Shown: positions 8,788-61,406 of the stretch, piece by piece
How the letters are laid out: each line of letters begins with the position of its first letter
Position numbering within the stretch: the first letter of the stretch is position 1
Assembly (NCBI GenBank): GCA_051294905.1
Contig: CM119373.1
Coordinates: 3,350,001-3,414,000 of the forward strand
DNA from: Botryllus schlosseri
Lineage: Eukaryota
Length of the DNA stretch: 64,000 nucleotides
Direction of reading: 5' to 3'
Notes under the pieces: generated by a model
Told to the model about the DNA's origin: nothing
What the model saw: the letters and a program-made list of their open reading frames with translations, nothing else
Database searches by the model: none
Program-made: the position numbers and the translations under genes

Positions 8788-11700
8788 TTATATATATATA
8801 TATAGGTCTAGCTCTGTCTGCATTCAGACTAAGAGCACCATCACCGAGGTGATGGAAATATCCATCGAAAAAGGACACAGCAATAAAGATTTCAAATATA
8901 AATTAAATTTCGCGTGAAAGTGCTGCTTTCGAAAATGTCCTGATGTCGGTATCGTTCCGATTAAGGACATTGTTCATCAGCGTTGCAGACGGTCTTCCTT
9001 TCTTGGTTCTCCTTTCATCTTCAAAGGTTATCGACTTCACGACACTATCATTAGGTTTCCGAATTATGTGGGCAAGAAATTTAGCTTGTTGGTGATCAAT
9101 AAAGGATGAGAGATCTTCAGTGCGACAGATTTTATGAAGACTTTTATTACTAATTTTGAAGGCGTGGCCGGTTCCCTTTCGAGTGTAGCCTCCATGTATC
9201 ATTTTTCGCAAAAATTGTCTGTAGCAGACATCCAGGACGTTTCTTTGATTTTCTGAAAGGGACCATACGCTGCAGCCATATGTGAGTCGACTTCTCACAA
9301 AAGCATTTAAAATTTTTATTCTTGTACCAATCCAAATTCTGAAGTTTCGAAGCAGGTATTTATTGGATTGGAAAGCTGCATGAGCCGAGCTGATCCTGTT
9401 GTTGATTTCGGTTATTCCCACATTCGTTTCCTTATAGTGAACAATACATCCAAGGTATTTGAAAGTTTTTACGTTTTCAATATGATGATTATGCAGAGAG
9501 CAGATTGAAGTCGGGTAAGTCAGTTCTTCATTGTGGTTAAATATCATAGTTTTTGTTTTCGACTCATTAATTTGTAATCCGAAATCAGTAAGAACTTCTG
9601 ATAGCAGTTTCAGGCCTTCCTGGAGAGAAGATTGGTCTTTGAAAAAGAATTCAAGATCGTCCGCATAGCCTGAGCCCATGTTGACAGCTGTTCCTTGGTA
9701 GTTTTTGTCCCTTTTATTTTCTCGTGCATAGTCCGGTGTGCGAAAATGATACTGGCTGAAAGCGATATCGGTTAGTTCCGCTCTGTGTAGGAAAACCCTC
9801 ACGGCATAGTCCATGTAAAGATTGAAGAGGATAGGGGACTCGGGACCGCCCTGTCGAACTCCAGATTTTGTGGAAAAAGTTTGGTTAGGGTGGCTTTTCA
9901 GTTCGGTTGTTGTGGATCGATATAGAGAGGCAAGTAAGTTCACGATTTTGGTTCCCTTATCCTCACCGATTCGATTTCGTAGCGACTGAATTAGCCAGGT
10001 TCTGTTGACGTGGTCGAACGCAGAGGAGAGATCGACAAACAAGGCATATGTTTGTATATCAGTTTTTTCCGCAATGATTTGAGACTGCTTCGTGACATAT
10101 ATACAGTCGGTGGTTCCCTTCCCTTTTCTAAAGCCACATTGGAATTCGAGAATTTGCTGGTTATACCATTCCTCTATTCTTGATATGATTATTTGTATTA
10201 ACAGTTTACAGAATACACTTCCAACTTGAATAGCGCGATATGTTGATGGATCGGTTCTGCTTCCTTTGTTTTTCCATATGGCAGTTAGCTTGCTATGGCC
10301 GAATGATTGGGGTAATTTTTCAATCTCCCATATTGTTTGGAACAATTCTGTAATTTTATCCATGATCAATTTTGATGACGCCATTGCTCTCAAAATCTCC
10401 GGTGGTACGTCTGAACTGGATTTCTTATGCTTCAGTTTTTCAATAGTTCGTTTAATTTCCTCGAGTGTTGGTGGGTCTTCATCGATAGTGGAACTATTTT
10501 CTCGCATCAACTTTAAAGCATTTGGAATGTTTTCCAGATCATTTGGCATCCCATCCGATTTCTCATTTCTTTGTTCGTCAAAATGGTTTTTGAAGAATTC
10601 AGCCAGTTTACTGGCTTGGCAGGAAATTGTGGTATTGCCTTTACCCAGAGTACAACCGTGTGCTTTAGCGTTTTTGAACAGAGTTGCGGTCTCTCTGTTT
10701 ATCGCATTTAGATTTATTTTTTCTGCTTCAGTTTTCCAGTGCCTGTTCATCAAAAAGTTTTTCCTTTTTCTAATTTTCTTTCTGAGGAGTGTTATGGCAC
10801 TTTGAGAGTCTGGATTGTTCCGTCCCACGTCTTTCAGTTTCTGTAGCAGATCGTTCAGTGCTTGATCACTTTCCCATATGTTTCCGAATTTTTCCTTATT
10901 ATATTTCGGGAGTATATTCTCCGTGGACATTTGCATCGATACTGTTAGCTTTTCGTATAGTGCGTCCACATCATTTTGCTGGCAGTCAGTTGAAAGAGAT
11001 TGTTCTACATCTTCGATTAGCCTGTTTTTGTAGTCGGTATCATTTAGGTAGCCGAGGTCCGGGGCCCCGCTCTCTTTTTCTTTATTAAGTTTCCGTGGTC
11101 TGAAACGTTCTTGTCTAGTAAATGGTGTTTTCATTTTTGCCACTAGAATTGTATGATCTGAATTTATTTGAACAGATCTTTTTGCACTGCAGTCGGTCAT
11201 ATATTGTCTCAGCCAGGACTCACAAAGAATGTAGTCCAATTTTTTTCGCGTTTTGCCATCTGGGCTAGTCCATGTTGTTTTCTTCCGTTCGTGATGTATA
11301 TAGAACGTGCTAGAAACGCATAGGTCTTTCTCTCTGCAGAAGTTGATCAGGCGATCACCGTTATCATTGTATGTGCAGTTCATTATGCCATTCTTGCCAT
11401 TGAATGAGCTGTGTGTTTCGCATAGGTTCGTCGTTGCATTCATATCTCCCATTACAATAATTTTCCGATGCTTTTCACCGTCATCTGCTTGGCAGACTTT
11501 GGAAAGACTATTGTAAAAATCGGCCTTGGTTGATGACGCTTTATCTTCCGTCGGGGCATAGGTGATAATAAATTTTATGTCAAGGTTGTGTACGGTAAGT
11601 TTTGCCGCAATCAATCTGGGTGATATGTTAATTACGTCTCGAATCTTTATGAAGCTGCATTGTCGAATTAATATGCCGACGCCATGTTTTCGAATGGATT

Positions 11701-12150
11701 TGTGGCCTTGCCAGTAAAATTTGTATTTACATCCATTCGCCTCAATAACTTTTTCTCCGCTGTCAAGTCGTTTGGTTTCTTGTAAACCGACGATGTCTAG
11801 GCCTGCGTCGCTTATTGCTTTGACGACTTCGTATGCTTTCTCGTCCTCTCTCATGGTTCTGACATTTATAGTTCCAAATTTCCAGTATCTTTTGTCTTGG
11901 TCTCTGATGGATTTTCGATTCGGAACATTTCCGGATGGTGCTGAATCACTGCATCCCATCCTGTGGAGTATATGGTTAAGAGATATTGTTGGTCCCCGCT
12001 TAGCTGGATTGGGGTATTTATAGATGTTCAAACTCTTTAGTGTAGTCTTTAAGGCTGATGTGATGCCTGTTCTTGTGAAATTACCGGTACTCATTCTCCT
12101 GGTGCACGACATTGTCTTTGGCAGATCAACAATCAGGTGATTGGCGGCGC
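8788..12150 (-). mobile_element. Near full-length single-ORF LINE (RTE-like) with (TA)n tail; 5' boundary approximate
   Basis: ORF 8903-12112 followed by a ~100-nt 3' UTR with hairpins and a (TA)n run at ~8789-8804. No TSD recognised. Confidence 0.8.
8903..12112 (-). CDS. Non-LTR retrotransposon (RTE-like) ORF: AP endonuclease plus reverse transcriptase, 1069 aa, uninterrupted
   Basis: APE motifs GTINVRT, DIVGLQET, YAPT, GDMNA, LDYIL, SDH. RT motifs QCGFRKG, FVDLSSAFD, GVRQGGPESPILFNLYMD, YADD, FKYLG. RTE-like C-terminus HIIRK...KKGRP. Confidence 0.95.
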   Translation of the reverse strand: MSCTRRMSTGNFTRTGITSALKTTLKSLNIYKYPNPAKRGPTISLNHILHRMGCSDSAPSGNVPNRKSIRDQDKRYWKFGTINVRTMREDEKAYEVVKAISDAGLDIVGLQETKRLDSGEKVIEANGCKYKFYWQGHKSIRKHGVGILIRQCSFIKIRDVINISPRLIAAKLTVHNLDIKFIITYAPTEDKASSTKADFYNSLSKVCQADDGEKHRKIIVMGDMNATTNLCETHSSFNGKNGIMNCTYNDNGDRLINFCREKDLCVSSTFYIHHERKKTTWTSPDGKTRKKLDYILCESWLRQYMTDCSAKRSVQINSDHTILVAKMKTPFTRQERFRPRKLNKEKESGAPDLGYLNDTDYKNRLIEDVEQSLSTDCQQNDVDALYEKLTVSMQMSTENILPKYNKEKFGNIWESDQALNDLLQKLKDVGRNNPDSQSAITLLRKKIRKRKNFLMNRHWKTEAEKINLNAINRETATLFKNAKAHGCTLGKGNTTISCQASKLAEFFKNHFDEQRNEKSDGMPNDLENIPNALKLMRENSSTIDEDPPTLEEIKRTIEKLKHKKSSSDVPPEILRAMASSKLIMDKITELFQTIWEIEKLPQSFGHSKLTAIWKNKGSRTDPSTYRAIQVGSVFCKLLIQIIISRIEEWYNQQILEFQCGFRKGKGTTDCIYVTKQSQIIAEKTDIQTYALFVDLSSAFDHVNRTWLIQSLRNRIGEDKGTKIVNLLASLYRSTTTELKSHPNQTFSTKSGVRQGGPESPILFNLYMDYAVRVFLHRAELTDIAFSQYHFRTPDYARENKRDKNYQGTAVNMGSGYADDLEFFFKDQSSLQEGLKLLSEVLTDFGLQINESKTKTMIFNHNEELTYPTSICSLHNHHIENVKTFKYLGCIVHYKETNVGITEINNRISSAHAAFQSNKYLLRNFRIWIGTRIKILNAFVRSRLTYGCSVWSLSENQRNVLDVCYRQFLRKMIHGGYTRKGTGHAFKISNKSLHKICRTEDLSSFIDHQQAKFLAHIIRKPNDSVVKSITFEDERRTKKGRPSATLMNNVLNRNDTDIRTFSKAALSREI

Positions 12151-13694
12151 GTCGGTTTCCTCACAATGCTGTTGCAACTATTAGATATATCAAGATATTC
12201 TAATATAGGCTACCGGTACTCGATATTCCTGTAAACTTAATACAACCAAATACTCCAGGGGTGGGTTAAATTGAGTATACTACTGAATGAGAACTTTTTT
12301 TGTTGCACTGTCATCAGAGAGGTTGTAGATACTCTTTTGAATCTTGTTATTCTGATTTTGTTACACAATTAGAGATTTAAAACAGTAACAGACATGCTCA
12401 GGTATTATAAGAAGAAGCGAACCGCTAAATATGCACCACATGAATTCGATCATGCCATCAAAGAAAGTAAGACAGGAAAGAGCTGTTATAATAGAGTCTG
12501 GGATTCCCTATGAAGCACTCATAACAAAGTTAATTAGAGCAACACAGAAAATTGTAGCCACGAGAGCAAGAATCAGTCGAGGAAAGTGACTAGATGAAAA
12601 GTTTGACTCGGGCAATTACTACACAGTAGTCTCACAAATAATGAAAAGAGAATCAAGAAATTATTTAGCTAGTCATAATGCCAAAAGAAGGCATGTTCAC
12701 TTGATCACGCCATAACTGGTGAGGTGCTGACATCAGAAGAAAGCATGACCAGACTGTAAGATGAGGAGAATGTATGAAAGCTAAAACGCAAGAGCAATGA
12801 AGTTGTGGTCAGTGACGATTATGAGGAGGAAGTAGCCACTTTAAGTACAGTTCTGAGATGGACTTGGGGAATTTGAAACAGTTCAGAAAGAGGAAGGATA
12901 TCAACGAGTTGGGTTGGCTCGTTATACAATACAGACAGACAAAGTTTCTGGGGCAGGTGGAAAATATGATGGGTGGCGGTGAAACATTCGAACATACTTT
13001 TTTGTTTGGTATGAACATAGCATCAACCAACGGGTTGCATATTTTCCTATCCCTGAAACATTGATGACATCAATTTCATGTGGAGAATATTTTCCATTTC
13101 ATTCAATGAAGTAATTTTCAAAGTGAAAGCACCAATTTCAGAAAGAAGAGGGGTTGTCAAATTTGAATCCAAACATTTAGTGAAACTTTGACATCTGATT
13201 ATTTCGTTCTGCTGTTCCTCCTAAAAAAGTTTCTGTTCAAGCAACAATAACAGATCTTGTTCCAGTTTCTTTTTTAAAAACATGTAAATATACTCAGTTT
13301 TCCCATACAATGGGTCATTTGGGTATAACGTGGGGATAAGGCTTGCTTCAAGTACACTTTAGACAGTATACTCAATTTTCCCACAAAATTGGGGTAAATT
13401 GAGTATACGAATTTGTAAAAAAAAAATCACAATATTTTTCCACTGCGAGCAAATTGAATCTTTAATTAATTTGCAACCGAAAATTCAACCATACAATGTA
13501 ACAAATATCAACCAGCCACCTTTTTATTAGACTGTTTATGAAAATGACAGCTGCTCAAACTTGAAAATATACTCAAATTCCCCCATCCCCCCCTATCCCT
13601 GGTTTTCGTAAATAATTTTACATGAAGATTTTCAGTAATTTGTAATTCACATTCTCTTTTTACTTCCACACAGTATAGCGGATTACGATAAAGC

Positions 13695-14552
13695 ATGCCT
13701 CCAATTCTAAACATCCCCGGTAACAAAAAGCCCGCGCTGAGCATATGGGCCGACTTGTCGGTGCACCAAGTCGACCAGCTGAACGCGGAGATAACGACCA
13801 ACGGAAAACGTCAGCTGCTACGTTCTATTCTCAAATTCGACGAGTCGCCAAGGAGCGAAATACTGCTGGACTTGTATCTAAACACTCTGAGATTTGCAAA
13901 ACTGCATAAATACAAAAGAGATCAGACTTCTGCATTGTTTTCAGTAGTGAAACAAACGCATGATACTGCTACATCAACGCCTTTCGGTAACATGGAGGAA
14001 TGCTTTGAATATTTCCGTGAGCTCATGCTTTTACACACGGTACACCGTCCACCGTGGAGCATAGAAGTATTTAACGCTGCGCAGCTTGAAGAAATCACGG
14101 CGCACGTGATCAATACATACTTCAGGCATTATAAACTGTACAAATACGCGTTTACGCCGAAAGTAAGGCTTGATTTGTCGATAAATTACGAAGGAAGAGT
14201 GCCTACTCCTGAACCTATAGAGTTAGATGACGACGATGATCAAGATGACATGATTGTAGCTTCGGAAAAAGCATCAGAACAAGTCTCTCCACGTAGCGCA
14301 GCCACTGATTCTCCGAAACAAGACGCTGTAAAACAGGACGAAACACACGAACAACCTTCTGAACTGGAAATAGTTGTACGAAAAGCGGTGACCGAACAAA
14401 TCAAGCAAATGCAACAGACCGTGGAGAAGCAGTTACACGATACTGACCAGATAATCAACGAGAAGATTCAGATGTTGGAACAGGGGCAGACGCCGGTGTC
14501 ACCGAAACCGAGGAAGTCGCCGAAAGGCAGCGCGAAGAGCAGGAAAAAATAG
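13695..14552 (+). CDS. CFAP119: Cilia- and flagella-associated protein 119 (CCDC189), single-exon CDS
   Basis: TPFGNMEECFEYFRELMLLHTVHRPPWSIEVF...INTYFRHYKLYKYAFTPKVRLDLSINY matches the CCDC189/C1a-32 family as I recall it. C-terminal coiled coil and basic tail. Confidence 0.9.
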   Translation: MPPILNIPGNKKPALSIWADLSVHQVDQLNAEITTNGKRQLLRSILKFDESPRSEILLDLYLNTLRFAKLHKYKRDQTSALFSVVKQTHDTATSTPFGNMEECFEYFRELMLLHTVHRPPWSIEVFNAAQLEEITAHVINTYFRHYKLYKYAFTPKVRLDLSINYEGRVPTPEPIELDDDDDQDDMIVASEKASEQVSPRSAATDSPKQDAVKQDETHEQPSELEIVVRKAVTEQIKQMQQTVEKQLHDTDQIINEKIQMLEQGQTPVSPKPRKSPKGSAKSRKK

Positions 14553-17624: not shown

Positions 17625-19420
17625 AGGGCATCTTTATCGGTTGAATCGACTTTCCGTAATACGCTAGATATATTTCCACTGATTTTGAAAATATATACCG
17701 TTTTCGCGGAATATGGGTATTTTTCAAGATATCGGGCGTAAAACAGCAACCTCCGCTGAAAAACACAAAATCGCTCGAGCGTATGATGAGGTCAGACATT
17801 GGACAGATTTATTTCTGTTGCTCACTCACTGGTCGGGTGCCGTACGGCGAACGTGGATATTTGGTGACCTGTTGGTTTGTTTCTTATTTCTGTTGAAGTG
17901 ATTGGCGACTTTTTCGTGTATCGAAGAAGATGGACAGAGTAGATAGCAGACTATCGAAGAGGAGACGAAAAACCGGTAAACGATGCGTGGCATACGGGTG
18001 CTCAAATGGCCCCTACACAATACCTAAGGTTTCGTTCCACGCATTCCCCAGAAAAGGGTCTCAACCCATAAGGCACAAGGCATGGGTTGATGCGGTTAGG
18101 AGAACGAGGAAAGACTGGGTGGGACCACCAGAAAAACTATCCGCCTTTTTTAGTTGTGTTTTGTGTTCCAACCATTTTGAAAAGAAATGCTTTGTGCCCA
18201 TAAACGAACTTCATAGGCAGGCTGGTTTTCGATGTAGTAAAGTGCAGCTAAAAAAGGATGCAATTCCAACTAAATTTTATGTGCGTGCTCGGGATAAACA
18301 ATTGAAGAAATCGAGGGACACAACGTCATTGGTCAAGCTTCATGAGGCAAGAACATATGCATCCGTCATCAAGCATGGTGCCATGGAAACTGATTTTTGT
18401 GATATGGATATCATCAAATCATCTATGAACGACAGTACTTCCGCTGGTGATACCTACTCCGATCACCGAATATTATTAGATAAAGCGACTCAGACGGATA
18501 AAGGTCATGCTATAAGGAAGATGAAAGATTTTTCATGTCAGGTTGGAAGTAGCTTCATTCATTATTCATTACCCCAATGAGGAGGATTATTGCAATGGAA
18601 GTGAATGAAATTTGAGTGATGCCGACTCTGAGTACAATGCTGAGAGTGACAAGGAATCAGAAATAAGCGATGTTACTGAAGAAATTTGAAGTAGGCTACC
18701 ACCAGTGGGTTTACGATGGTTAAAAACAGAAGATCGTTGATCTTTTATCCAACCTACCCGTTGTTCCAAATGAATACGACATTAAAGTTTCATGGTTAAC
18801 GAGAGTTGATCAAGGGTGCCCTGACAAATGCTGCAACTATCACCGTACGTGGGAAACATTGTGATGACCAGTGCAATCATGTTCAGTGGATCATCTCCTT
18901 CGAAAGCACTGAAAATGTTTCGTTTGATGGGTTTACTGTCGATTTCCGACTCTTCGTGTGTATGCAATACCATAAGGTACCTATTTGATTCCATTTGTGA
19001 ATGTAGATTATACTACGGCGAATGACTGCGATTTGGCAATGGTTGGTGGAAAGTCACTGATACTACCTGACGACGGGAGGGCTGACAGTCCAGGACATAG
19101 CGGAGAGTATATGATTTACACTCTGATGGATACCGCCTCAAGAAAGTTTTAAGCAGCAATACTTCTGACAACGAGACCTTGACCGCACTCCTCAATCACT
19201 TGATTTCGGTGCGTAAAGTACTCCATTTGAAATTTATCTCACAATCCTTTTAACGTGGCTATTTCAATGAAGTGGACTAATTTCCAGCTAATCCATGTCA
19301 TATATTTTTTTTCGTTTACTCCACTATAGGCCCTTGTCAAGATCAAAACAAGTGGAAAAGACATCCCTGCCTCTTCAAGCATACCTGGAACACGATGTCA
19401 CTATTATTTCAAATATGACC
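17625..19420 (+). mobile_element. Decayed Kolobok-like DNA transposon (THAP plus transposase remnants); right end lost or approximate
   Basis: TTAA|AGGG left end at 17621-17628. THAP ORF followed by out-of-frame remnants GNIVMTSAIMFSGSSPSKALKMF (~18850-18920) and DGRADSPGHSGEY (19072-19110). Confidence 0.7.
17930..18580 (+). CDS. THAP zinc-finger protein, 216 aa (N-terminus of the transposase, possibly a pseudogene)
   Basis: C2CH THAP signature CVAYGCSN..SFHAFP..W..AVRR..W..LCSNHF..CF..LKKDAIPT. Confidence 0.8.
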   Translation: MDRVDSRLSKRRRKTGKRCVAYGCSNGPYTIPKVSFHAFPRKGSQPIRHKAWVDAVRRTRKDWVGPPEKLSAFFSCVLCSNHFEKKCFVPINELHRQAGFRCSKVQLKKDAIPTKFYVRARDKQLKKSRDTTSLVKLHEARTYASVIKHGAMETDFCDMDIIKSSMNDSTSAGDTYSDHRILLDKATQTDKGHAIRKMKDFSCQVGSSFIHYSLPQ

Positions 19421-26458: not shown

Positions 26459-26890
26459 AGCTTCTTGGCGGTCCAGAACCTCAATATACAATTGAATAGT
26501 ATTCATAATAAAATGAACTCGAATATTTCATGCAGACAGTCGTCAGGGGCAATCGTCTGCAACTAGTAGAGGATTAGGAAGAACATTGTGGTGTTTTGAA
26601 TTGATCAAAATTCTTAACAATCTGAACTGAAAAAATTAAGATCGACAATCATATCACAAAATATGACGTCACCAGCATGGAATTTCGAATAATCAGAGAG
26701 AAGAGAGAGCTTAAGCTTAACGTACCAACTAAAAATAGTACATGAAACAGAAGATCCCTCTTCGCCCCGATTATTCGAAATTTGATGCTGGTGACGTCCT
26801 ATTTTGTGATACGATTGATGATATGCAATGTTCTTTCCAAGTCTCTATTATTAGGCCTAGTTGCTGACTATTACCATTCGGGTTCTTTTT
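26459..26890 (-). mobile_element. Diverged Penelope-like derivative with inverted arms
   Basis: Similar to the reverse complement of 40943-41164, then a partial inverted arm. Ribozyme cores are degenerate. Confidence 0.75.
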
Positions 26891-31230: not shown

Positions 31231-32100
31231 GTTATCAGTCTTTTAGGAAAAACTAGGGCTAGCATATTTACTTTTTATCATTTGGAAATGCTAGTTGCAC
31301 TTGAGCACCAAATATGACTAGTTTGACGGCCGGTGTTGAAATTCCCACTATGCAATTTCAATGCTTGCTATCTCCACCACAATGCATGTTACTGTGGTTA
31401 GCACTGGATGATATCTCGGCGGGGAATTGGTTAACCAAAACTAGCATCCTCATCCCCACAGAACATGATAATAAAGTCACACTGAGATAAAACTGCTGTG
31501 CTGGTTACTGAATCAATCTCGCAAGATATGCTTATTCTGTCTTATGGCAATAATCAGCCTTGGTCAGCATGTATAGTTAATCTTGCTAACGAGGGGGAGA
31601 AGTTAATAACAAACCATGTTAACTCCAGCCGTGTAGACGGGATGTGTAGGCCTATTATATGCAGATATGGTTGAAGTAGTCAGGATTGGTGATCAAGTAG
31701 AAGTAGGTGTAGCGTTTCCAGAACATGACAAAATTACTTTGAGTGGGAGTAGTAAATGAGATTCCAAAAGTACCCAAGTAACCAATTTCAAAAAGTAGAT
31801 TTGATTGAGGGGTCGCGTACTTTCAAAATTGCAAGATGACTCGAGTCCGACTCGAGCCACGTTTTCTTTTTGACTCGACTGGACTCGAGTCATTTTTTCA
31901 AATGCGTAAAATGACTCATTGTGCATGACTCGAGACTAGGACGATCAATACTTACATTTCATTGTAACGTCGAATAATAGTATTTAAAGTAACCAACTGT
32001 TGGTATTTCGTCTATCAGTTCTGATACTTGGAAAATAGGGTCAGAAACTGTTAGGAATGAGGAAAATTATGATATTATGAATGTGAGCCTTTCTATATCA

Positions 32101-32602
32101 TTGAATACTATATTCATATTGAAATGACCCCGAATATTTTCGGCTGACACTCGTCAGGGGTAATCGTCAGCAACTAGTAGAGAATTCAAAAGAACATCGT
32201 ATATCAACAATCGTAGCACGAAATATGACGTCACCAGCACAAAATGTCGAATGCAAGAGCGTTCAATGTACTATTATTAGATGGTGCACAAACTCTTTTT
32301 GTTGACACAGCCTTGGCCGGTGTATTTTGATAAAAGTCGACTCCAAGGCACATAAATGAAAGTGTGAACGACCATTTCCGAGTACGGTATGCGAAATCTG
32401 TCATCTCGACAATCCAGCCTGTGCGCAAAAATTCGACATTTCATGCTGGTGACGTCATATTTCGTGCTACGATTGTTGATATACGATGTTCATTTGAATT
32501 CTCACCCCTGACGAGTGTCAGTCGAAAATATTCGGGTTCATTTCAATATGAATATACTATTCAATTGTATATTGAAGTTCTGTACCTCCAAGAAGCTGTT
32601 CA
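32101..32602. mobile_element. Penelope-like derivative with inverted arms and two intact hammerhead cores
   Basis: Direct repeat TTCTATATCA at 32091-32100 and 32603-32612. Minus-strand GIY-YIG C-terminal remnant (GRSHFHLCALESTFIKIHRPRLCQQKEFVHHL). Cores at 32128-32161 (-) and 32504-32537 (+). Confidence 0.85.
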
Positions 32603-33801: not shown

Positions 33802-33824
33802 CTGAAAATACATATTAATATATT

Positions 33825-34050
33825 AAGAGCTTCTTGGAGGTACAGAACTTCAATATTCAATTGAACAATGGTAGTATATTCATATTGAAATGAACCCGAA
33901 TATTTCTGACTGAGACTCGTCAGAGGCAATCGTCAGCAACTAGTAGAGAATTGGAAAAAAACATCGCATATCAACAATCGTATCACAAAATATGACGTCA
34001 CCAGCATGAAATGAGATCTCAAATAGGAGAGCGTTCAATGTACTATTTTA
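33825..34050 (-). mobile_element. Solo Penelope-like pLTR next to the DPH5 exon 3 acceptor
   Basis: Reverse complement of 40950-41164 including the tail. Core variant CTGACGAGTCTCAGTCAGAAATATTC. Confidence 0.8.
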
Positions 34051-36464
34051 AGAATTTTTTAGAATATTTTTAGAATTGAAATAAGGGCGTAAAATCATTT
34101 CGCAAATTAGATTCGAATTAGAATGAGACCATAGAAGCAACTCGCAAATTAGATTACATTTAGTTAAGCGGCATTTGTCCAATTACAGAACTCGTTGTCC
34201 ACTATCACTACTATCTCATCCATTGGTGTTGTATGGCAAAATATATTTAGTGTTCCATTCATGAGAGTAACATAATCGTCATAGTTGTTTTGACGCCAGC
34301 CAGCAGCTCTGACGCATTTTAAAATGTCTCTAATTAATAATGCATCTTGGAAGGTATTCTGTACCTAATAGGGGTGTTATTATTGCGTGTATTATGACAA
34401 CATGACTGAACTACAAAGCAAACGCGGACAAATAATGCATGAACACAGCAGAAACCTGAACCTTACCTGTCAGTGTGACCATATTGACGTGAATTTAAGT
34501 GTACTATCTTAAAAGTCACTTGCGTGGGACATGATGATTTTATGATGAGATGGAACCATTCTCAATATCCGAATACTGTAAGCGGACATGCTAACCTTTT
34601 TGAATTATTCAGAGATTTTAGCAAAGGCCATCAGTTTATCCACATGCGGAGCGAAAAATTAATTTTTTTCGACGACTTCATTCGAGTTAATTACTTAAAA
34701 ATATGAAATGACTCGACTCAACTTGAGTCAATTCGTGTATTGACTCGACTTGTGCTCGAGTCATTGCGCATGACTCAATCAAGTGATATGACTCAAGATA
34801 TTCTATATTATTTGATTCAAGTCTCGTGTAGAAACCCAATTTTATCTTTTTGAACAAAACAAACGCGTCAAGAGTGAAAAGAACCTTACTTGAACTCGGT
34901 AATGAACAGTGGACTCTGTAACTTGGACTCAGACTCAAGTCTTAACACGATGACTCGGACTCAGCCCATTGTTCCTGGAATTTAATTCGAATTTGACTCG
35001 GTGTTGGAGTGAAAATGACTCGAATTGACTGGAGTCAAAACTTCAAAAGTAAAATTGATTCGTGACTCGGCTCTGGACCTTGTGACTTGGTTACAACTCT
35101 GCAAGAATGTCACCACAGTCATGTGACTAGCAATACATGTATGTTGAGGTTTGGGAAATTCAATTCACACCGACCCCACCCCTGAAGATTATTCAAATTC
35201 ATCCCCCAAACCCACATAATTATACAGTGTCTTACATGCAATTTCTCCTGCAACTTTCCTTTATAATTAAGAGTTAAAGAATAATCGTAATGGAGTGACT
35301 GGGGCAGATTTGATTGAAATATATTCATAACAGCCTTGTCAATTTCATTTCTATCTACCTCAGCAAAATCTGGCTTGACACACCAATACCCATGAAGCAG
35401 TCATCAATTAAATTTGAAGTACAAAAATCAGATATTGACAGAAATATCAGTAAAATGATTGATTCGATCAGCGCCAAAACCAGCATTAGGTCCCTCAGGA
35501 GACACATAGCATATCAATCCTAGATATCGGCATATGTTACTTCATTAAAAGGTCCACTGGAATTGAATGGTTTCCAATTGATACCGAGATTATTGACAGT
35601 TCCATTGCTAGAAATAATTTGAACCGCTCTCTGAAATCAAACCCATGTTTTTCTGTTCATGGTATTGCGATCATGCGATATTGACAATAAATGATGATGA
35701 TGATTAGTTCCAGACCAATATATCGGGTTGATATCTGCCTCTGTAGGCTTTTGAAAGTACAGAACTGCTATTGATAAGAGTAATTTATTATCTGTCTCTA
35801 AAAAAATATTGGTACTAAGGAATTACAGCCAGGGTTGTAAACAAGTCATTCCGAGTCAAAAGCCAATCGTACTTTCATAGTTTTGACTCGAGTCATTTTC
35901 AATCACCACAGAGTCAAGTTCGAATCGGGAATCATAGGGTTGAGTCCACTCTATTGTGTTCACTGTTCAATTTTGAGTCAAGCCCACTTTTTTGCAACTC
36001 ACCTTGAGTGCTATCTAATGCCTTGCATTTATAATATAAAAATTTTCCCCACCTTACCATGCTTCTAGCCCTATTCTTCAAGTACCAGTAATGATAGACG
36101 AAATACGGTACCAATAATGTGTAAACTATACTACTCTTTGGATTAACAATGAAATGCATGTCTTGGCCGTCCTAGTCTCGAGTCATGCACAAATTGACTC
36201 AAGTCGAGTCATGTACTGTATTGAAGAAAATGGAGTAGAGTCACCGAAAAATCATGACTCGAGTCACTACAACCCTGATCTCAGTCGATAAATGAAAACA
36301 CTTTGGTATTGTACGATTGAGGACCATACGAGTTCACCTCTTGGTGAAACTACTGTTTCCATACATATAGAAATTGAGCTACAATATAAAGGTCACGTCG
36401 AGTAAGTGCGACAGTGAAGATATCGCGCCATTAATTTCGCAATGGACTAAGAAATGGTGCGCAG

Positions 36465-39525: not shown

Positions 39526-40617
39526 ATTTTTTAAATTTTATTATAATCTGACAAAAAATAAGACCAGCCTGTTCACATTGAGTCACAAACACTGCAGCAC
39601 ATACTTAATCTGGTTACCACAGATTGAACACCGGAAAGATAAATATATTTCAACTTCCATCACAAACAGTATACCGAATACAAGAATGCTTGACGGAATC
39701 AAAAGTACTTATGTAGCTTGTAAGACATTTGCTTGACCAGCAATTTCTCTTCAAATACGACACAGAATATAGAAACATTACACACATTTCCAAAGGCGTA
39801 ACCGCAAAGATGTGTACACTATTAATTTGAAGCATGTTCATTCGACATCAAAGTAGAATACGATTTAAGTTGATTGTATAAAGCTAGATCTTATACAGGG
39901 ATTGAAACATTCACAATAATTTCTGCATACTGCCAATTTTGCTTGTCAAAGTGTAACATGAAAATATTAAAGGTACAAACAGGTAAGGCAGCCTACATAA
40001 TACTCACGAGATATTCAAATTCTACAATGTATAATCATAATATATATCCATTTAGCATGTACAGTGTACAGTACACCACACAAAATATTGTTAAGACACT
40101 ATTAAATCGTGTACTTTGGAATATTTTTTGAAGATAGGACAGTTAAGTCGTAGAATAGTTTTAGAATTGGAAAGAGTAGAGAAGAATTGGCACTCCGATA
40201 CAGAGAATAAGGAGTTATAGAGTGTCATGAATTGCATAACGAACGAATTTGGGGTTTGAGTTCATGAACCTGCTATTTAACGCAATTCAAATGGTACTGA
40301 TCCTGGATAAATTTTTCACCACATCTACTCATCAACATGTTGTGGTAACAATGAAATTAAGTGAAACAAGTGAAATAGTCATAAATAACAAAGAATACAG
40401 TTACATTATAGCAGTAACTGGGCTTAAGAGAAGTGCTGGAGCTTGAGTCATGACATCACCGTGATATGTGTCTGTAAAGCAAGTTAACTTCGTATAGTTA
40501 CATTTACCAACTTTACTGCGGTCAAATATAACGCTTTCAATCAAGTTCATTATTCAAGCTATCACAGGATCTTTTACACATTAGTAGTAATTAAATAGTA
40601 TATTCATATTGAAATGA

Positions 40618-40661
40618 ACCCGAATATTTTCGGCTGACACTCGTCAGGGGTAATCGTCAGC
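40618..40661 (-). ncRNA. Minimal type I hammerhead ribozyme motif (inverted arm copy)
   Basis: Exact reverse complement of 41055-41098. Confidence 0.75.
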
Positions 40662-41054
40662 AACTAGTAGAGAATTGGAAAGAACATTGTATATCAACAA
40701 TCGTATCACAAAATATGACGTCACCAGCATGAAATTTCGAATAAGAGAGCGTTCAATGTACTATTTTTAGGTGTGCCATCGGCAAACATCTGTTGGAGAA
40801 TCCGATTTGTGCGAATAATTATCGAGACGACCGATTTCGAATCGTAGGTCGAGGCCGTTCACAATTCCATTTGTGTGCCTTGGAATCAACTTTTATCAAA
40901 ATACACCAACCAAAACTCTGTCAACAAAAGGAGTTCGTGTATCACCTAAAAATAGTACATTGAACGCTCTCTTATTCGAAATTTCATGCTGGTGACGTCA
41001 TATTTTGTGATACGATTGTTGATATACAATGTTCTTTCCAATTCTCTACTAGTT

Positions 41055-41098
41055 GCTGACGATTACCCCTGACGAGTGTCAGCCGAAAATATTCGGGT
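41055..41098 (+). ncRNA. Minimal type I hammerhead ribozyme motif
   Basis: ACCC-CTGACGA-GTGTCAGCC-GAAA-ATAT-TC-GGGT: full catalytic consensus, 4-bp helix I, palindromic AATATT helix III. Confidence 0.75.
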
Positions 41099-41474
41099 TC
41101 ATTTCAATATGAATATACTATTTAATTGTATATTGAAGTTCTGTACCTCCAAGAAGCTCTTCAAACATTAGTAGTAGTTTCATTCACACATCACAGTAGG
41201 CCTACCATCCACTATCTCCCCAATATCAACAATGTATTGTTTGCACAACTAAATTAAGGTCAGGACTCTGTGAGTACAAAACATAACAAAAGACAGTTGA
41301 ATCTTAAGTGCTCATATAAATCAGGCACTTGCGAGTCAATAAAAGGTGAAGCCACACAAAGATAATTCGCAAAAGTACACAAACATATTTTGTTGGTGGT
41401 GTGGTGCATGCCGGCCAGGGCCAGCGGCATATGTAAATAAAATACAGTAGTAATGAGATTGTTACCATTTCATA

Positions 41475-41808
41475 ACCTGGGCCAAATATCCAGTGAAATA
41501 TGTAGTCTGACGCCAGTACAAGGAAACAGTCTATTGAGATGCCTGTTATCTATTCAAAATAGTATATTAAAGACAACATAGTATTTTATTACTCATTTCC
41601 ATGCTATTCTTTCAGGGTAGCATCCATTTAACTTATATATACATCGACCTGGGCCAAATGTCCAGTGAAATATGTAGTATGACGCCAGTACAAGGAAGCA
41701 GTCTATTGAGATGCCAGAAATCTATTCAAAATAGTATATTAAAGACTACATCCTCATTTCCATGCTATTCTTTCACGGTAGCATCCATTCAACTTATATA
41801 TATATCGA
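41475..41808. repeat. Tandem duplication of a ~165-170-bp unit
   Basis: ACCTGGGCCAAAT.TCCAGTGAAATATGTAGT...AACTTATATATA.ATCG occurs at ~41475 and ~41647. Confidence 0.85.
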
Positions 41809-43364
41809 CTTTCAATTAAATAAAAGGGCAAAAGAAAACAGGGAACAAAAGAACATCAAGATAATCAGTTTTGGGCCCTTGTTCAGTGCCTCCAGCGTGG
41901 GCGGTCATGGGCATCTTCGAGCAACAGCCCACGTTGCGCTAGCCCGAGCATTTAACTTACACCAACTGTGGTCATACATCATACTTAATTTTGAAAACGG
42001 GTATCATATCTAGGAGCTTATTAGATCATAATTGGTGAATTCCGGCTTCAGGTTGGAAAAAGGGCAATTTCTCCATGAACATTAATCGCGATTGATCATA
42101 TGCCGTCAGATTCATAAATGGGAAATGATAATGATGATGGGAAATGATGTCTACTGACAAAAGGGAAATAAAGTAGGGTAGCCAAGTTCAAAATAACGTT
42201 CACAAACTCTCATTGATGATAACACAGTCAATGACTTGGGCAAGGCAGAATTGAAAATTAGGACGGTGGGCTTATTTTGCATCATTGTTACACTGCCATG
42301 GTTATATTGTGATATTGTGATGCAATACAGGACGGATAGCTCCAGATACGATTTCTCATGCAAAACTACTGACAAATTTTGAATGTTTGCAGTTAAATTG
42401 CCACGGCAGCATCAAATATTTGAATCAGAAGAAGGAAAATGTCTTATTTGCAGATTTCATCAATCCTCACTCTAGTTACGTAAACTAGGAGCCCACACAC
42501 CTATCAGTGGTGATTTTCTACACTAAAACCCAAGTAACCTCACCCCTCAAGGCCCAAATATTTTAATTGAAACAGAGCGGGTCTGCTTTAGAAAACAGTC
42601 CTACATTCATACGTCATTTGGAACAGTAGCATCACATCCACTCCATAGTTTAAATTCCAAGTTCTTACACCCTATTGCAAAATACATGAAATCATAGAAA
42701 TCTATAGTACAGAACGCATGGGATTGTCAGGTATTTCAATACCATGCAAGATCAAGTCATAATGATTAAAATACTGAGTCTGGGTAAGTCTTTGGTTGAT
42801 TACGTTTAACTAAGGTAGAAATTAAGAAGGATACAGAAGAGAAAAGATCTGAAATCTCTTAGATTATAGCTATGAATAAAAAGATCAGTGCAACTGATTG
42901 CAGAGGTGGCTAGTCAAGTAATAAAGCAGTTCTACTTCATTACGTACTCAAGACGGTTTCGTCTGCTTCGGCCACCTTTGGCCAATTGTCAACATAATTT
43001 AGTAACTCGGGCCCAAGTTGGGAGAGAGGTCTCAAAAAATCCATGCCCCAAAACCGATGACTATTTTGCTCATTTCAATAATTACTCAAGCATAAGACTG
43101 AGGCATCCACGTCTAGTTCAAGTTTAGTCCATTCAATACGAATGCTAGAAGGCATATTATTAGTATTTATAAATCGTTTGGGTTGTTTTTTTTTCAACTA
43201 AAAAAGGGTTCAACATGAAGTAAGTCATGCTACATACTTGAGTGACTCTTCTAGGCAAGTTATTTCTTCATATCTACGTCATGGCCTTTCAAGAGTAGAG
43301 ACATGATGTACTGCAGTTCAATAGAAGGGAATCGGGAAGTAGCTAAGGATACTCTACTCAAAGC

Positions 43365-44074: not shown

Positions 44075-46039
44075 CTAGTAATTAAAATGAGGACTAGGTC
44101 GGCGCTTAGGTGGGTCGTCACGACGCATGTAGATTGCACTCAAATTACACCCCCTACAAGCCCTTTCGTAGGCATCCAAGTCTTTAATATACCAAACCGG
44201 CGGCCAGCGTAACGACTGTACACGTCTCAAATTACAATCGGACAGACACTTCATAACTTTCTTGCATTTTTTACACACATCGTTATAGTTAGTGGCAAGG
44301 AAATAAACACACCATTTGGCAAGGTTGGGCGCGTTGTGGATGTGCGCTACTTCGAGCATGCACAGTACGTTCTCGTACAGTTCTCTGTCTATGCAGACAG
44401 CTGCTTTTTCGTTAAATTTCTTCACGATGTAAGCCTCTACGATAAGCACCAATTCAGGAAGGCAAAGTCTGTTAGCGAGCGCAATGATATCATCACAAGC
44501 GTTTCCAAATTCGATCGCAATTGAATTGGTGTCGACTGCTTTGGTGTAGATGTATTCAAACGCAATTTGTAAACACTCGACTGTAGTTTCAGGGAAGTTT
44601 AAAGCCTTGTTTCCCTTCTCAACGAAATCACTGAGCAACATAGCGCTCATCATATCAGAGCCGCACACCAGCAAAGCCTTGTGGGCCGGTAAGCTGCCGT
44701 TATCGGCAACAAACACAATGTCAGAGTACAGGTCTTTGCACAGGAACATAGCGTTCAATCTGTTCTTTCTTAGCACGTCGAATTTTTCGGTAGGCAAAAT
44801 TTTGTCAGGACGTTCGACATAAATCCATTCAAGCGCCTCCACAAAATGCGTAACGCCGAATGCCGTGCCGATCGTCAATAACTCAGAACGTTGGTGATTT
44901 TCTTCTAACCGTGTTCCGTGTGAGATGTCGCTTTGAAACGATCCAGTGTAGATAAAATGCATGACGCTCAAGAAAGCGAATTCTGTAATATCCGCGGTTA
45001 ATATGAGTACGTCTGATTCTGCATTGTGAAATTCGTATCCCACGACAAATTCTGGATAGTCCGAGTCTTGGAAAGTGGATTTGCCTTTGAAATTATCACC
45101 GTCTGGGTTGTGATTCGCGTCTAAAATCGTAGTTTTGGATCGAATTTCAAAAATTCGATGAAAAACGTCTGACGCTGCAGCCAGCACTACTTTGTGTGCC
45201 GAAAATTTAAAATTTTCGCCCACGATACGCAAGTCGGAAGCCACCGAGTTTTTGTACAAGCTTCCAAAATTAACGGGAGCGTCCTCTACTGCTGGGCACG
45301 GAGGTGGAGACGGCTTCGGTGGCTCCAATGGTTTTTGAAACAAAGGCCTGTTCAGTGTCGGCCGTGAAAACGAAGAGAATAGTCCCCGTGCCGGTACGCA
45401 TACGCGTAACACATTTTCAAATACATCTCTAACGCCGAAACCTTCGAGTACGCTGACTTCGTAGTACGGCAACCCCATGTCTTCGGCAAAATTCCTACAA
45501 ACTTCAGGGTATAGGATGTCGCAGGCTTCCAATTTTTTTGATACTGATGCTTTTTTGCGGTTAATATCATCTAAATCGGCATACCTTAAATCGATCTTAC
45601 ATCCGACTAGGATAATCGGTGCTTTTTTACAATGTTTACGAACTTCAGGAATCCAAAACGACTTCACGTTTTGGAATGATTTCGGATCACCTACAGAAAA
45701 ACACACAACAACGCAATTAGCTTGCCCGTACGCGAACACGCGGTTCTTATTATGGTCGCCAAAAGTATCCCACAGTCTCAAAGACACTCTCCATCCGTCC
45801 AGAGTTTCTCTCGAGTATTTGAGCACTAGCGGATCAGTGCGGTAATGGTCAAGAGCCCATACTGTCGGAACGTGAATCTTCAGATAACGTAAGTGGTCAA
45901 CTTTTGATGCGTAGCTTTTGTAAGCGCGAGCACACACTAATTTGGTTTTGCCGACATTGTTGTCGCCGACCACTACGCATTTTATTGTCTCCTCGTTGGC
46001 GTTATCCATGTTTCGGAATTTCCCATCTAGGTAGTGCAT
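44075..46039 (-). CDS. RHOBTB: Rho-related BTB domain protein (RhoBTB1/2-like), single-exon CDS; the start may be the second Met at 46009
   Basis: Atypical Rho domain (GDNNVGKT, VPTVW, LWDTFGDH, GCKIDLR), proline-rich linker, two BTB domains (SAHKVVLAAAS, PAHKALLVCGS) and C-terminal RWPPVWY. Confidence 0.95.
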   Translation of the reverse strand: MHYLDGKFRNMDNANEETIKCVVVGDNNVGKTKLVCARAYKSYASKVDHLRYLKIHVPTVWALDHYRTDPLVLKYSRETLDGWRVSLRLWDTFGDHNKNRVFAYGQANCVVVCFSVGDPKSFQNVKSFWIPEVRKHCKKAPIILVGCKIDLRYADLDDINRKKASVSKKLEACDILYPEVCRNFAEDMGLPYYEVSVLEGFGVRDVFENVLRVCVPARGLFSSFSRPTLNRPLFQKPLEPPKPSPPPCPAVEDAPVNFGSLYKNSVASDLRIVGENFKFSAHKVVLAAASDVFHRIFEIRSKTTILDANHNPDGDNFKGKSTFQDSDYPEFVVGYEFHNAESDVLILTADITEFAFLSVMHFIYTGSFQSDISHGTRLEENHQRSELLTIGTAFGVTHFVEALEWIYVERPDKILPTEKFDVLRKNRLNAMFLCKDLYSDIVFVADNGSLPAHKALLVCGSDMMSAMLLSDFVEKGNKALNFPETTVECLQIAFEYIYTKAVDTNSIAIEFGNACDDIIALANRLCLPELVLIVEAYIVKKFNEKAAVCIDRELYENVLCMLEVAHIHNAPNLAKWCVYFLATNYNDVCKKCKKVMKCLSDCNLRRVQSLRWPPVWYIKDLDAYERACRGCNLSAIYMRRDDPPKRRPSPHFNY

Positions 46040-48061
46040 TAACCGTAGGGCGTAGGCTAACGGATAGAAGGCATCTGTATGACAGAGAGATAAAAAGAAA
46101 TATATTGATCATTAAATTCACCATTAAACAGTTCTGAATAGTTTGAAATAGATGAAAAGCTGCACCCAGTTCTGAACTTCACGTTAACATGCATTTGCAG
46201 TGACTCACTGGGATACCGGTACAGAACTAATTTACTAGTAAATAGTTGAAAAATATATCCCTAGGAAGACTATATTGTAAGACTGCTACACCGTCTTTCT
46301 TCAGGGCTCCCATATAGCGTCCCAGTGCACTCCATACCCTCTGTCCGACAGTCCGAGTAGTTCTGCCCCTTCGAAATCAAAATCGCCCCCTGGTCTGATG
46401 AAAATTTGAATAAAATGACTTTGACTATAAAATGAGACACAGACTAAGCGTCCTTGTTTAGGTTACAGCATCACTGTCGAGTTCTCACTTCCTTCTATTT
46501 TCAGCAGACTCTCAATATAGTCAATTGTCTGACAAAAGGCCAGGACAGATACGGTAAGCCTCGTGATTCAATATACAGAAATAACGCAGCTAATGTAAAA
46601 ATGCAGGCTGCAATATGTTAAGTCCTATGAAGCGTTCATGAGATAACATTATATGCTGAGAGGATAAACTTCCAGCTGGTAACGGGTCTGAGCGACTAAT
46701 GGCGAGACACGACTTAGGTTGTATTTATCTACCACACGAGCACAAGCCAACATGCCGGAATCGCACACGAATTGCTGATTTCGTAAACAAAAAGCTCTGA
46801 GCATACTCGAAGACGTCATCGCATGAAGGGGGCGGTTCATGGGCGTCCATCCTCTTCCTGGACTTGAACACCAGATACAATTTGTTAGGGCCGTGTTGAC
46901 TGTTGAGTGTTGTTATGCTCGCCATGGAGGCACATCGTCTGATACAAGTATTGCACTACTGAATCGACAAGTTTCCATCATTGTTTACTTGTACAAACTA
47001 CCAATTTATTTATAGTTGATGGTCAGCTGTAACTCCTGTCTTACAATAGCCTTAACAGCTTGTGTGGAAAACCGATCCGATGAAATTAAAATGAATGAGT
47101 TGCTTCGAAATTCAATTTGATATTTGTTGAGTTTTAGTTAGTTAGTTGCGGATTTTAAACGTCGTTAATTCCAGTTCTCGCTTTAGTTGCGAGTTTTGAA
47201 AATCCAGTAGCATCAGATCAGTATCACTTTTACTAATAATCTCATCATTTCAAAACACCACACGACTGCGATGCGATAGGAAGATGCCGTCTGCCGTAGT
47301 ACACGCATACTTTTTGTGAAGGCTATATGGTACAAGTGAGTTATATAGTGGTTGATTAATTTATGAGCAGGATACACCTTCACAAACACATATTTAAATA
47401 GTATATTCATATTGTAATGAACCCGAAGAGAAGGCATAGCAATTTACAATGTAGCTTCGTTATAAATGGCTATGGAGAAGGTTTCATACGTTAGGTTTCG
47501 TTGATGTACTTTCGCTGCTTGTTCTTAGCAGGGCATGGTATGGTATGGTATGGAACGAGAATTTTCCATACTCCATACTTGCCTTACTCTCTCCATACCA
47601 TACTTGCAATTTTCCATACCATACCAACATTGTTCCATACCATACTTAATACATATATTCCATACTTTCGAATACTTCAATATCATAAGTGTAGTACCTT
47701 TTCTCACACATATATTATTGATATTTCGGATGTCGTTATCGCTTAAACTAGCCATGATGCGAATCTAACTCCTGGTAATAGTTTTACAGAGTCTGTTTTG
47801 GTGAGGTTTAGTTCACAGTGGTGAGGTGCCGTGTACCTCCTCTACTCGACAGCTTCCGCGAGCAAAATGAGATGGTCAGCAGATTGTTATCTAGGAATGT
47901 CCACAAAAGGGACTGACAACATACGGCCCGCACCGAGATTTTGTCCGGCCCGTGACCAGTTTCCCGTCTTACATGATCATGTGGCCCGCGGCCCCAATCT
48001 GCCGAGATTCCCCACTAGTTGCCTAAACATCAAATTTTAGTGACTGCATGTTATTATATAG

Positions 48062-59441: not shown

Positions 59442-60389
59442 CACTAAACGATAGTGAAATTACTTTCTGATATCATGATGCAATACCAGCTTGTTATGGT
59501 AATTTGACTGTGAACTGGATATATCGTCGCTGGACAACCAAATAGTCTTATGTCCATTTCTGGAATTTTTGTCTTTATTATAATTTGGACGTAAACCACA
59601 ATTTTGTTTTTAATTTACCTTGAAAATGCAAGTTCATATGTCCACTTCACTAGAAATTCATATCCTACTTAGGAACTTGGAATCCGGTTAAAACGAAAGA
59701 TAGCCTATCTATATATGTCGAAGTATGACAAAAAACTTCCAAAATACGAAAAGTAGACATAAGACTGTTTGGTTTTCCATAGGTCTATCTAATCCGTCCA
59801 AATATTTGTTTTCGCTATCTGTAATGTAGAAAAGTTGGTGGTTTATGGGGAGTAATAGCAATAAAATGATAATTTATATTCATCTGATTGAATATTTCAA
59901 CAATTTTCTGAACAGCAGAGAATTGAAATGTCGGGAAATTTAACTTGTCAGTTGAAAATGTACCCCGACAGTCTCACAAATATAATGAGGTATCAGTATC
60001 ACTATATCCAAAATCCAGTAAATTGATATTGGCAATGCAATAAGCGAAATGTATTACTTTTAGTTTCAGCTAGTGGGAGAATTGGCATTATTCGTTAATT
60101 GATCGCAATGTAAATCTTGATTCTAAAGTGGTGAGAGTGAGTCGAAGGCTAAAGCTATTAACTAGTCATACGAATGCGAAATCCATTGTAATTCATGTTT
60201 GAAAACGATGATTCACAGCTATAAGTAGACACAGATTAACGATAATGGATTTGGTTAGTAGGCCTCAATACTGAATCAGATATGGTTCTGTTTCGGCACT
60301 GAAGTTCAGTAGCCCTTTGACCCTACTAAGTGATGTGTTCTATATTCTATATAGTGGGTTTGGTAGCTGTGTAACCTTGAAATCTGAAT

Positions 60390-61406
60390 ATGGCTGCCAG
60401 CCATAATGTCAATCGACGGGCGTATACCCACCAAAACGGAGTACCAATGAGAAATCGTAACGGGACTACCAAGTACGCAGTCACAGACGCCGGAATACGA
60501 GCTCCATCTCATGTCTCGGCCGCAATCTCATCAGAAATGGTTGAACGCAAATTACGTGATCTAACCTTAGAAGTCGAAAAAGAGTTGAGCTCACCAGGCG
60601 GGTCTGAAGCTTATTTTGGACGCTGCGCCAAATGCGCGCAACCTGTGTACGGGCACTCTTCTGCGTGCCAAGCTATGGGGAAAATATACCACAACACGTG
60701 TTTTGTGTGTGGATGCTGTAGCCGGACTCTACGCGGTAAAGCGTTCTACAACGTAAACGGAAAGATATTCTGCGAAGAGGATTACTTGTATTCTGGATTT
60801 CAGCAAAGCGCCAAAAAATGCCAAGCCTGCGGACATCCCATCATGGAAATGATACTGCACGCTTTAGGGAAACCTTACCACCCTGGCTGTTTTCGGTGCT
60901 GCGTATGCAACAAATGCCTCGACGGTATACCTTTCACCGTCGACGTTGAGAATAAGATATACTGCGTTGAAGACTATAACAAGCTACAAAACATTTACGC
61001 GCCAAAATGCGCAAAGTGTCAACGGTCTATTACGTCTGTAAATGGACGTAAAGAAACTGTAAAAGTAGTGTCAATGGGTGAAAATTTCCATTTGGATTGT
61101 TTCGTGTGCGAAAGTTGCGGGATTCAACTCAACGACGCCAGCAAGCCGAGGTATTTCATGCTAAACGGCAGGCTTCTTTGTCACATGTGCAGGGAGACGC
61201 CTTCTCACCATCAAAGGACCGCTGCTCATCGTTATTCTTTGCAGAATTTTCCTTCCCGTACGTCGTATAGTAGCACGGGATCTTCAAACAGTTCGAACGG
61301 GAATCCGAACCCTGTGCGGATTCGGTCGCTGGATATAGACAGGCATCACCAGCCGCATAATTCTCGCGCGCCTAGAGTGAAGTCTTGGCACCCAACACCG
61401 CAATAA
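60390..61406 (+). CDS. WTIP: Ajuba/LIMD1/WTIP-family three-LIM-domain protein, single-exon CDS
   Basis: ERKLRDLTLEVEKEL helix, then three LIM domains including ACQAMGKIYHNTCF.C..C.RTLRGKAFYNVNGKIFCEEDYLYSGFQQSA. Likely co-orthologous to AJUBA/LIMD1/WTIP. Confidence 0.88.
   Translation: MAASHNVNRRAYTHQNGVPMRNRNGTTKYAVTDAGIRAPSHVSAAISSEMVERKLRDLTLEVEKELSSPGGSEAYFGRCAKCAQPVYGHSSACQAMGKIYHNTCFVCGCCSRTLRGKAFYNVNGKIFCEEDYLYSGFQQSAKKCQACGHPIMEMILHALGKPYHPGCFRCCVCNKCLDGIPFTVDVENKIYCVEDYNKLQNIYAPKCAKCQRSITSVNGRKETVKVVSMGENFHLDCFVCESCGIQLNDASKPRYFMLNGRLLCHMCRETPSHHQRTAAHRYSLQNFPSRTSYSSTGSSNSSNGNPNPVRIRSLDIDRHHQPHNSRAPRVKSWHPTPQ

Follow-up and report, generated by a model that had tools for sequence, protein, structure and literature searches.

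The window analyzed here, a 64,000-nt stretch of Botryllus schlosseri DNA, contains uninterrupted frames for a CLAMP-domain protein (13692-14552, + strand), a THAP-domain protein (17897-18580, + strand), a RhoBTB-like (Ras plus BTB) protein (44075-46108, - strand) and a LIM-domain protein (60381-61406, + strand). A LINE-type element with an intact ORF of 1,085 amino acid residues for endonuclease plus reverse transcriptase (RT) is located at 8903-12160 (- strand). The insertion considered below sits 2.9 kb beyond the stop of the minus-strand RhoBTB-like gene, and a two-copy direct repeat (41475-41809; ~170 nt, 93-95% alike) adjoins its right side.

The insertion is composed of two opposed pieces of one element. 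A direct, 5'-truncated copy occupies 40774-41164 (+ strand) and corresponds to positions 2302-2692 of the master unit described below, while an inverted, 5'-truncated second copy, the inverted pLTR, occupies 40589-40773 (- strand; master 2471-2655), stops at ORF position +19 and is without a tail. The right arm (40943-41127, + strand) carries the last endonuclease codons, the 3' UTR, the hammerhead motif and the first 19 nt of the ORF. The original prediction had described 185-bp inverted arms free of mismatches, an unpaired 37-nt tail and a 12-bp flanking duplication. The arms (40589-40773 and 40943-41127, 185 nt each, spaced by 169 nt) are indeed 100% complementary, and the tail (41128-41164, + strand) has no pairing partner. 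The duplication is likewise present as identical 12-bp words at 40578-40589 and 41165-41176 (+ strand), but it is not separate from the 185-bp arm: base 40589 belongs to both, so that the count is 185+11 or 184+12, not 185+12. The 62-codon frame reported between the arms is real (40775-40963, + strand; codons 40775-40960, stop 40961-40963), but its last 18 coding bases and the stop lie within the right arm. It has no start codon and represents residues 787-848 of the element ORF, the C-terminal part of the putative GIY-YIG endonuclease; the stop-to-stop frame comprises 72 codons, the first 10 of which are read from the antisense arm. The 5' end of the next unit's ORF lies at 41109-41164 (+ strand), with its AUG at 41109, 14 nt past the predicted ribozyme cut, and the 37-nt tail equals positions +20 to +56 of this ORF (codons 7-19). 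A TGACGTCA palindrome at 40993-41000, which has no strand of its own, is a candidate pLTR promoter element. A CGTCA half-site was found 64-74 nt upstream of the hammerhead core in 8/8 representatives from the B. schlosseri genome, and this CRE-like site may have a promoter role for the pLTR.

When the genome (495 Mb, 219 contigs) was searched with the segment 40774-41164, 2,791 candidate matches were obtained; 40 of the 2,791 were scored, and all of these were 99-100% identical. A 30-mer from the tail occurred exactly 1,839 times. Tracing the longest copies upstream led to the master, a direct tandem of 2,692-nt units with an intact ORF of 848 amino acid residues, so the genome-wide check for an RT-GIY-YIG master copy that had been proposed returned one. 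The master loci, L031 (G000:C16:20948000-20957000) and L034, are multi-unit arrays, both direct and inverted, with intact ORFs, and many intact copies of several Penelope-like element (PLE) families are present genome-wide. Compared with the master, the window copy carries two changes over 391 nt, one private (40798) and the other common to 2/29 copies (40973). Given this near identity and the absence of any mismatch between the arms, the insertion is very young, as the original prediction had supposed of the family, which is also a very active one.

The master ORF matched RVT_1 (E 8e-9). The master protein on its own gave no Pfam GIY-YIG match; the GIY-YIG profile was matched by 8/23 aligned relatives at E<=0.1 (best 1e-4), and the motifs NVVY..YVG, CHC, NQH, KHL and ALE were recognized by inspection at master residues 724-823. 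The assignment of a putative GIY-YIG endonuclease to the master rests on these motifs and the aligned relatives. The window peptide is identical at 61/63 positions to the C-terminus of the intact RT-GIY-YIG ORF, which bears out the proposed Penelope-like origin. The profile search that had been suggested for the peptide failed: neither the 72-aa frame nor the peptide alone matched any Pfam family, and the GIY-YIG motif itself is absent from the peptide. Three features place the element among the EN+ Penelope-like elements, namely a single ORF in which a C-terminal GIY-YIG domain comes after the RT (complete in the master, with only residues 787-848 in the window copy), tandem units forming pLTRs (L031, L034), and an inverted 5'-truncated copy with a one-sided tail and a target duplication. 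The linker of the master protein has just two scattered Cys (615, 693), in keeping with the Penelope/Poseidon type, which has an EN without the Zn-finger-like linker of Neptune/Nematis. A DKG motif, named in a portion of PMC8557442, lies at residue 270, and the master RT matched TERT profiles at E 0.08-0.1 only, more weakly than the profiles of two other RTs. The same genome contains seven or more related families whose open frames are long (protein identity 55-69%), and no relative was found in viral contigs.

The architecture of the window copy was then compared with that of other genomic copies. Among the first 30 of the 1,839 exact tail matches (contig C1), an inverted arm was present in 12, with its end at master 2653-2661, and nine of them were flanked by a duplication of 12-14 bp. 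Five of the remaining matches represent one old fragment inside another repeat, five run past the fetched stretch, and the others are plain or rearranged. Within the 30 best-hit loci, all 12 inverted copies with both ends visible carry, each on its two flanks, the same word of 12-14 nt; the duplication lengths include 0-5 nt also matching the element ends and leave the true stagger uncertain. Family-wide, direct copies end at about +56 of the ORF and inverted copies at about +19, and the window copy, with its direct piece ending at +56 and its inverted piece at +19, confirms the expected inverted pLTR lacking the short tail. The outer ends are constant and the inner breakpoints vary from copy to copy. 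Moreover, 29/29 other best-hit loci run on into the ORF at 40774, and none has the 40773/40774 junction. The window piece has a junction of its own and is an ordinary truncated insertion, not the separately amplified derivative that it had first been thought to be. It is accordingly most improbable that the 576-bp unit is a non-autonomous, MITE-like or retrozyme-like element multiplying in this form. Such a reading would suit its compactness, its perfect inverted arms and the duplication on both sides, and pLTRs alone can mobilise in trans according to part of PMC3846280; against it, inner breakpoints differ in every copy, so the unit is not its own family, its junction is absent from 29/29 other best-hit loci, and its left flank is single-copy in the assembly. 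A non-LTR retrozyme (non-coding tandem repeats of 150-450 nt with same-strand hammerheads) was also considered and rejected; the copies here are opposed and come from a coding unit.

This insertion architecture is already published for PLEs: the inverted pLTR, a tail of 30-40 bp made of the first ORF codons and the target duplication are described in passages of PMC3846280 and PMC8557442. As described in the same passages, Pen2a of Adineta is alike in its RT-EN ORF of ~840 aa, partial tandems, inverted 5'-truncated copy, tail and short duplication, whereas the duplications are 8-10 bp in the Adineta examples and 12-14 bp, as counted, in B. schlosseri; the architecture is otherwise the same. 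A parallel to the process is offered by Poseidon_Ac of the green anole, for which sections of PMC11167929 report that in vitro the PLE protein nicks both strands, that reverse transcription starts at two internal sites bounding the tail, that the RNA is uncleaved, and that hammerhead cleavage is dispensable for insertion. The two systems share two fixed ends in the 5' end of the ORF, AT-rich targets, a hammerhead at the pLTR-ORF junction and a lack of RNA reads ending at the cut; the AUG of Poseidon_Ac, however, lies within the ribozyme and the cut falls 26 nt after it, whereas the predicted cut here is 14 nt before the AUG, and those sections mention no flank pseudoknot. In B. schlosseri, 27/30 direct segments cross the predicted cut upstream and 0/30 start at it, which argues that the template RNA was uncleaved. 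By analogy with the in vitro work, the element protein would have nicked both target strands, reverse transcription would have been primed on uncleaved RNA at two internal sites (portions of PMC11167929), and the two short cDNAs would have been joined head to head. The fixed ends at +19 and +56 would make this a second natural case of two-site internal priming.

The hammerhead motif, ACCC-CUGACGA-GUGUCAGCC-GAAA-AUAU-UC-GGGU, was located in each arm as had been claimed, at 41065-41098 (+ strand) and mirrored at 40651-40618 (- strand). Searching the genome with the motif pattern gave 5,364 forward matches (many listed twice) and 3,256 reverse matches, ~6,500 in all, and the reversed control gave 0; the occurrence of the pattern is not due to chance. 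In the predicted type I fold on the plus strand, helix I is formed by 41065-68 and 41095-98, the core CUGACGA lies at 41069-75, a single pair, G41076-C41084, closes the loop 41077-83, and GAAA (41085-88) is followed by the palindrome AAUAUU (41088-93), with the predicted cut after C41094. The mirror hammerhead, together with its pseudoknot strand, would occupy 40618-40661 (- strand), with a cut between 40622 and 40621 as deduced from mirror coordinates. A CUGAnGA core, GAAA, UH at the cut, the C3-G8 and G10.1-C11.1 pairs and an open helix I were all found, as expected of a type I hammerhead; with these core elements and AAUAUU in place, the original prediction of a type I hammerhead with a palindromic helix III, cut after C41094, agrees with the sequence. 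Minimal hammerheads of PLEs, opposed pairs 100-700 bp apart included, were described by Cervera and De la Pena 2014 (part of PMC4209133), and those of metazoan PLEs are alike in being type I with a helix I of 4-5 bp, G10.1-C11.1, a palindromic helix III and U3-A8 variants.

Helix II sets the motif apart from that published form. The nine bases originally labelled as helix II cannot form a stem past G41076-C41084, and a one-pair helix II was found in 10/10 representatives (8 from the B. schlosseri genome and 2 from metagenome contigs), whereas PLE hammerheads in the text consulted of PMC4209133 have a helix II of 7-8 bp with an extra base at 9.1. A long helix II of 7-8 bp with a 5' unpaired base was seen in none of the ten, and the classification as a published minimal hammerhead had to be given up. 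In distant PLEs (27-44% protein identity, animal contigs in metagenome-assembled genomes (MAGs)), the published long-helix-II form was found in 9/31 loci; it was not found in this clade. The covariance check for known hammerheads was negative as well, in that Rfam searches on 3 kb and 121 nt of the window returned no hammerhead family, even at E<=10. Helix III is rudimentary. It consists of the AAUAUU palindrome in the window and is palindromic in 7/10 representatives; it is non-palindromic in families C, D and I, so that a dimer step is not valid clade-wide.

In place of helix II, the motif likely folds with a pseudoknot to its 5' flank. The loop at 41077-41083 is predicted to pair with a strand at 41055-41061 (+ strand), outside the motif first described, and this pairing shows compensatory change between families. 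All ten representatives have a loop of 7-8 nt, closed by G10.1-C11.1, with 5-6 Watson-Crick pairs to a strand whose 3' end lies 8 nt upstream of the core (9 nt in one case). The pairing reads GCUGAC/GUCAGC in families A, B and H, CGUGCC/GGCACG in family C, UGUGCC/GGCACA in family I, GUGCC/GGCAC in family D, ACUAAC/GUUAGU in family G and UCUGAC/GUCAGA in the metagenome pair. Over 12 aligned rows, 97.9% of cells pair, compared with 77.1 +/- 3.3 in 500 shuffles (0/500 as high), and 28-49% pair when the partners are slid out of register. Four of the six pseudoknot pairs changed on both sides; C3-G8 alternates with U3-A8, and G10.1-C11.1 is invariant. Three sequence classes can be told apart; a flank forms 5-6 bp with loops of its own class and 1-2 bp with those of the other classes. 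Since the 12 rows are related (8 families) and also supplied the structure, and the shuffles ignore relatedness, the evidence amounts to three sequence solutions plus single-pair swaps and not to twelve tests. On these alignments, the pairing is kept by compensatory change across seven families here and two metagenome loci. Between families, the ribozyme segments are 68% alike, whereas the 64 nt preceding them reach 52%, with shuffles at 44%. An upstream CUGACGA at 41056 was tried as the core and rejected; in families C, D, I and G it varies together with the knot, whereas the core pattern is retained by the downstream copy.

The fold resembles the PK hammerheads described in parts of PMC3088659 and, for PDB 8YDC, of PMC11300833, in which a single G10.1-C11.1 pair is combined with a loop engaged in a ~6-bp helix that replaces helix II; these known examples, with a one-pair stem II and a pseudoknot of 6 bp, come from outside PLEs and are active. 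The 8YDC structure places the partner strand inside the helix IV loop and contains an A-minor triplex (same portion of PMC11300833), whereas the partner here is linear flanking sequence separated from helix I by 0-4 nt, which leaves no space for a helix IV, and helix III is rudimentary. Neither a helix IV around the partner strand nor an A-rich linker of the 8YDC type was seen; 8 nt (9 in one family) separate the partner strand from the core, and 4-8 of these are in helix I. PLE minimal hammerheads, by contrast, have no tertiary contacts according to part of PMC6155905, and a flank-loop knot is predicted here.

Plain folding favoured a core-trapping hairpin and not the hammerhead, with a stability no better than that of shuffles (z -0.6 to -2.0), and the cloverleaf without the pseudoknot was unfavourable (+5.2 kcal/mol). 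The pseudoknot helix (-7.8) is stronger than the core-trapping hairpin (-5.4). A real flank-loop helix could instead switch the ribozyme off or serve as a hairpin for protein binding, keeping the RNA uncleaved and available for reverse transcription. Such a role would fit the tight space, in that 8 nt of flank must accommodate helix I and the knot along with the single G-C pair; it would also fit the derivation of insertions from uncleaved RNA and the finding, in part of PMC11167929, that the Poseidon_Ac hammerhead cleaves only with protein. The knot helix is nevertheless compatible with every core pair, the 8-nt spacing between its strand and the core is constant in 9/10 representatives, and the portions consulted of PMC3088659 and PMC11300833 describe active ribozymes that fold with a 6-bp pseudoknot and a one-pair stem II, which makes an inhibitory or protein-binding role improbable. 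We consider it highly probable that the locus holds a recent 5'-truncated head-to-head insertion of an endonuclease-bearing PLE, whose hammerhead likely combines a helix II of one pair with a bracing pseudoknot of 5-7 bp to the 5' flank.

In the window copy, the ribozyme is likely a silent passenger and would be at most a source of dsRNA. Its read-through transcript is predicted to collapse into a hairpin of 185 bp (-369 kcal/mol), with the left arm pairing to the motif over its full 44 nt, so the ribozyme is likely inert, and the opposed strands of the two motifs preclude a dimer in cis. That both opposed hammerheads are active and cut transcripts of both strands, as predicted for the mirrored sites, is very unlikely. 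Both motifs are intact and identical to those of the master, and a transcript starting within the arm, past the CRE-like site, would avoid the hairpin; the full pairing of each motif by the other arm and the location on opposite strands count against cleavage, and the 6% of a single RNA run that was read contained nothing covering the flanks of the insertion. In raw RNA reads (3-6% of three runs), no pile-up of starts or ends was seen and none at the predicted cut, a weak test with fragmented libraries. Read depth lay on the short 3' end in both orientations, with little on the ORF, and 65-97% of reads continued into unrelated flanks, so that they look like copies carried along within host transcripts. 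The joints listed included no spliced one in the pLTR, and none of the indexed RNA runs is on record as holding the element.

Transcription from the pLTR of a tandem master would yield an RNA with two knotted ribozymes spaced by one unit, the first of them lying directly before the AUG, with its predicted cut 14 nt ahead of that codon. Cleavage would probably be slow or aided, either by a second copy closing helix III through the palindrome or by the element's protein. The predicted cut lies 3-24 nt before an AUG in 9/10 representatives. In portions of PMC13725137, RNA viruses are reported to carry type I hammerheads with a short helix II ahead of start codons, where they aid translation. Motivated by that report, one may speculate, with little confidence, that one animal PLE branch independently built a knot-braced hammerhead that combines the fast PK fold of microbes with the dimer-dependent fold of animals, and that its cut, falling 3-24 nt before the AUG, turns template RNA into an uncapped message and thereby serves as a switch between copying and translation.

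The insertion represents a known kind of element with a likely variant ribozyme. PLE hammerheads have been described as weak and without tertiary contacts, and a knot-braced build is of modest importance in this respect. The abstract of Lunse 2017, on PLE-associated hammerhead variants, is said to call pseudoknots between the stem I flank and loop II common in hammerheads, and this work may be an earlier source of the knotted form. A literature search by title and opening lines of the abstract found no description of a flank-loop knot in PLEs, and the words "Penelope" and "retrotranspos" are absent from PMC11300833. Within a single genome, the predicted knot-braced form recurs in no fewer than seven families that have intact ORFs, which provides natural mutant pairs for probing how and when such ribozymes cut. 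It was missed by Rfam, which suggests that censuses using helix II descriptors undercount such ribozymes.

Several further variants were recorded. Family I (L129, L130; intact ORF) has the core UCGAUAA, in which U4 is changed to C together with U3-A8, a rare core change in a natural hammerhead. Loop III is non-palindromic (GUUC or GUC) in families C, D and I (L068, L074, L089, L129), which for this reason may be independent of a palindrome-mediated dimer. PLE reverse transcriptases were also seen on contigs of bacterial and archaeal MAGs (L134-L164), most likely from contamination of the assemblies by animal hosts. An old PLE fragment, a passenger in another repeat of ~1.5 kb, accounts for 5/30 tail matches (L171, L172, L177, L178 and L183, around 1280-1540); it consists of 98 nt of the 3' end fused to an inverted ORF piece, and its ribozyme lacks the 5' helix I and knot strands. 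At least six PLE-family insertions are present in the 64-kb window. Degenerate 3'-end fragments of the same family (83-97%) lie at 8123-8302, 26459-26875, 33817-34052 and 47394-47427, and an older copy at 32100-32602, about 85% identical to the master, has the same inverted build and a 10-bp flanking duplication, with the pseudoknot 5' strand deleted from its right arm.
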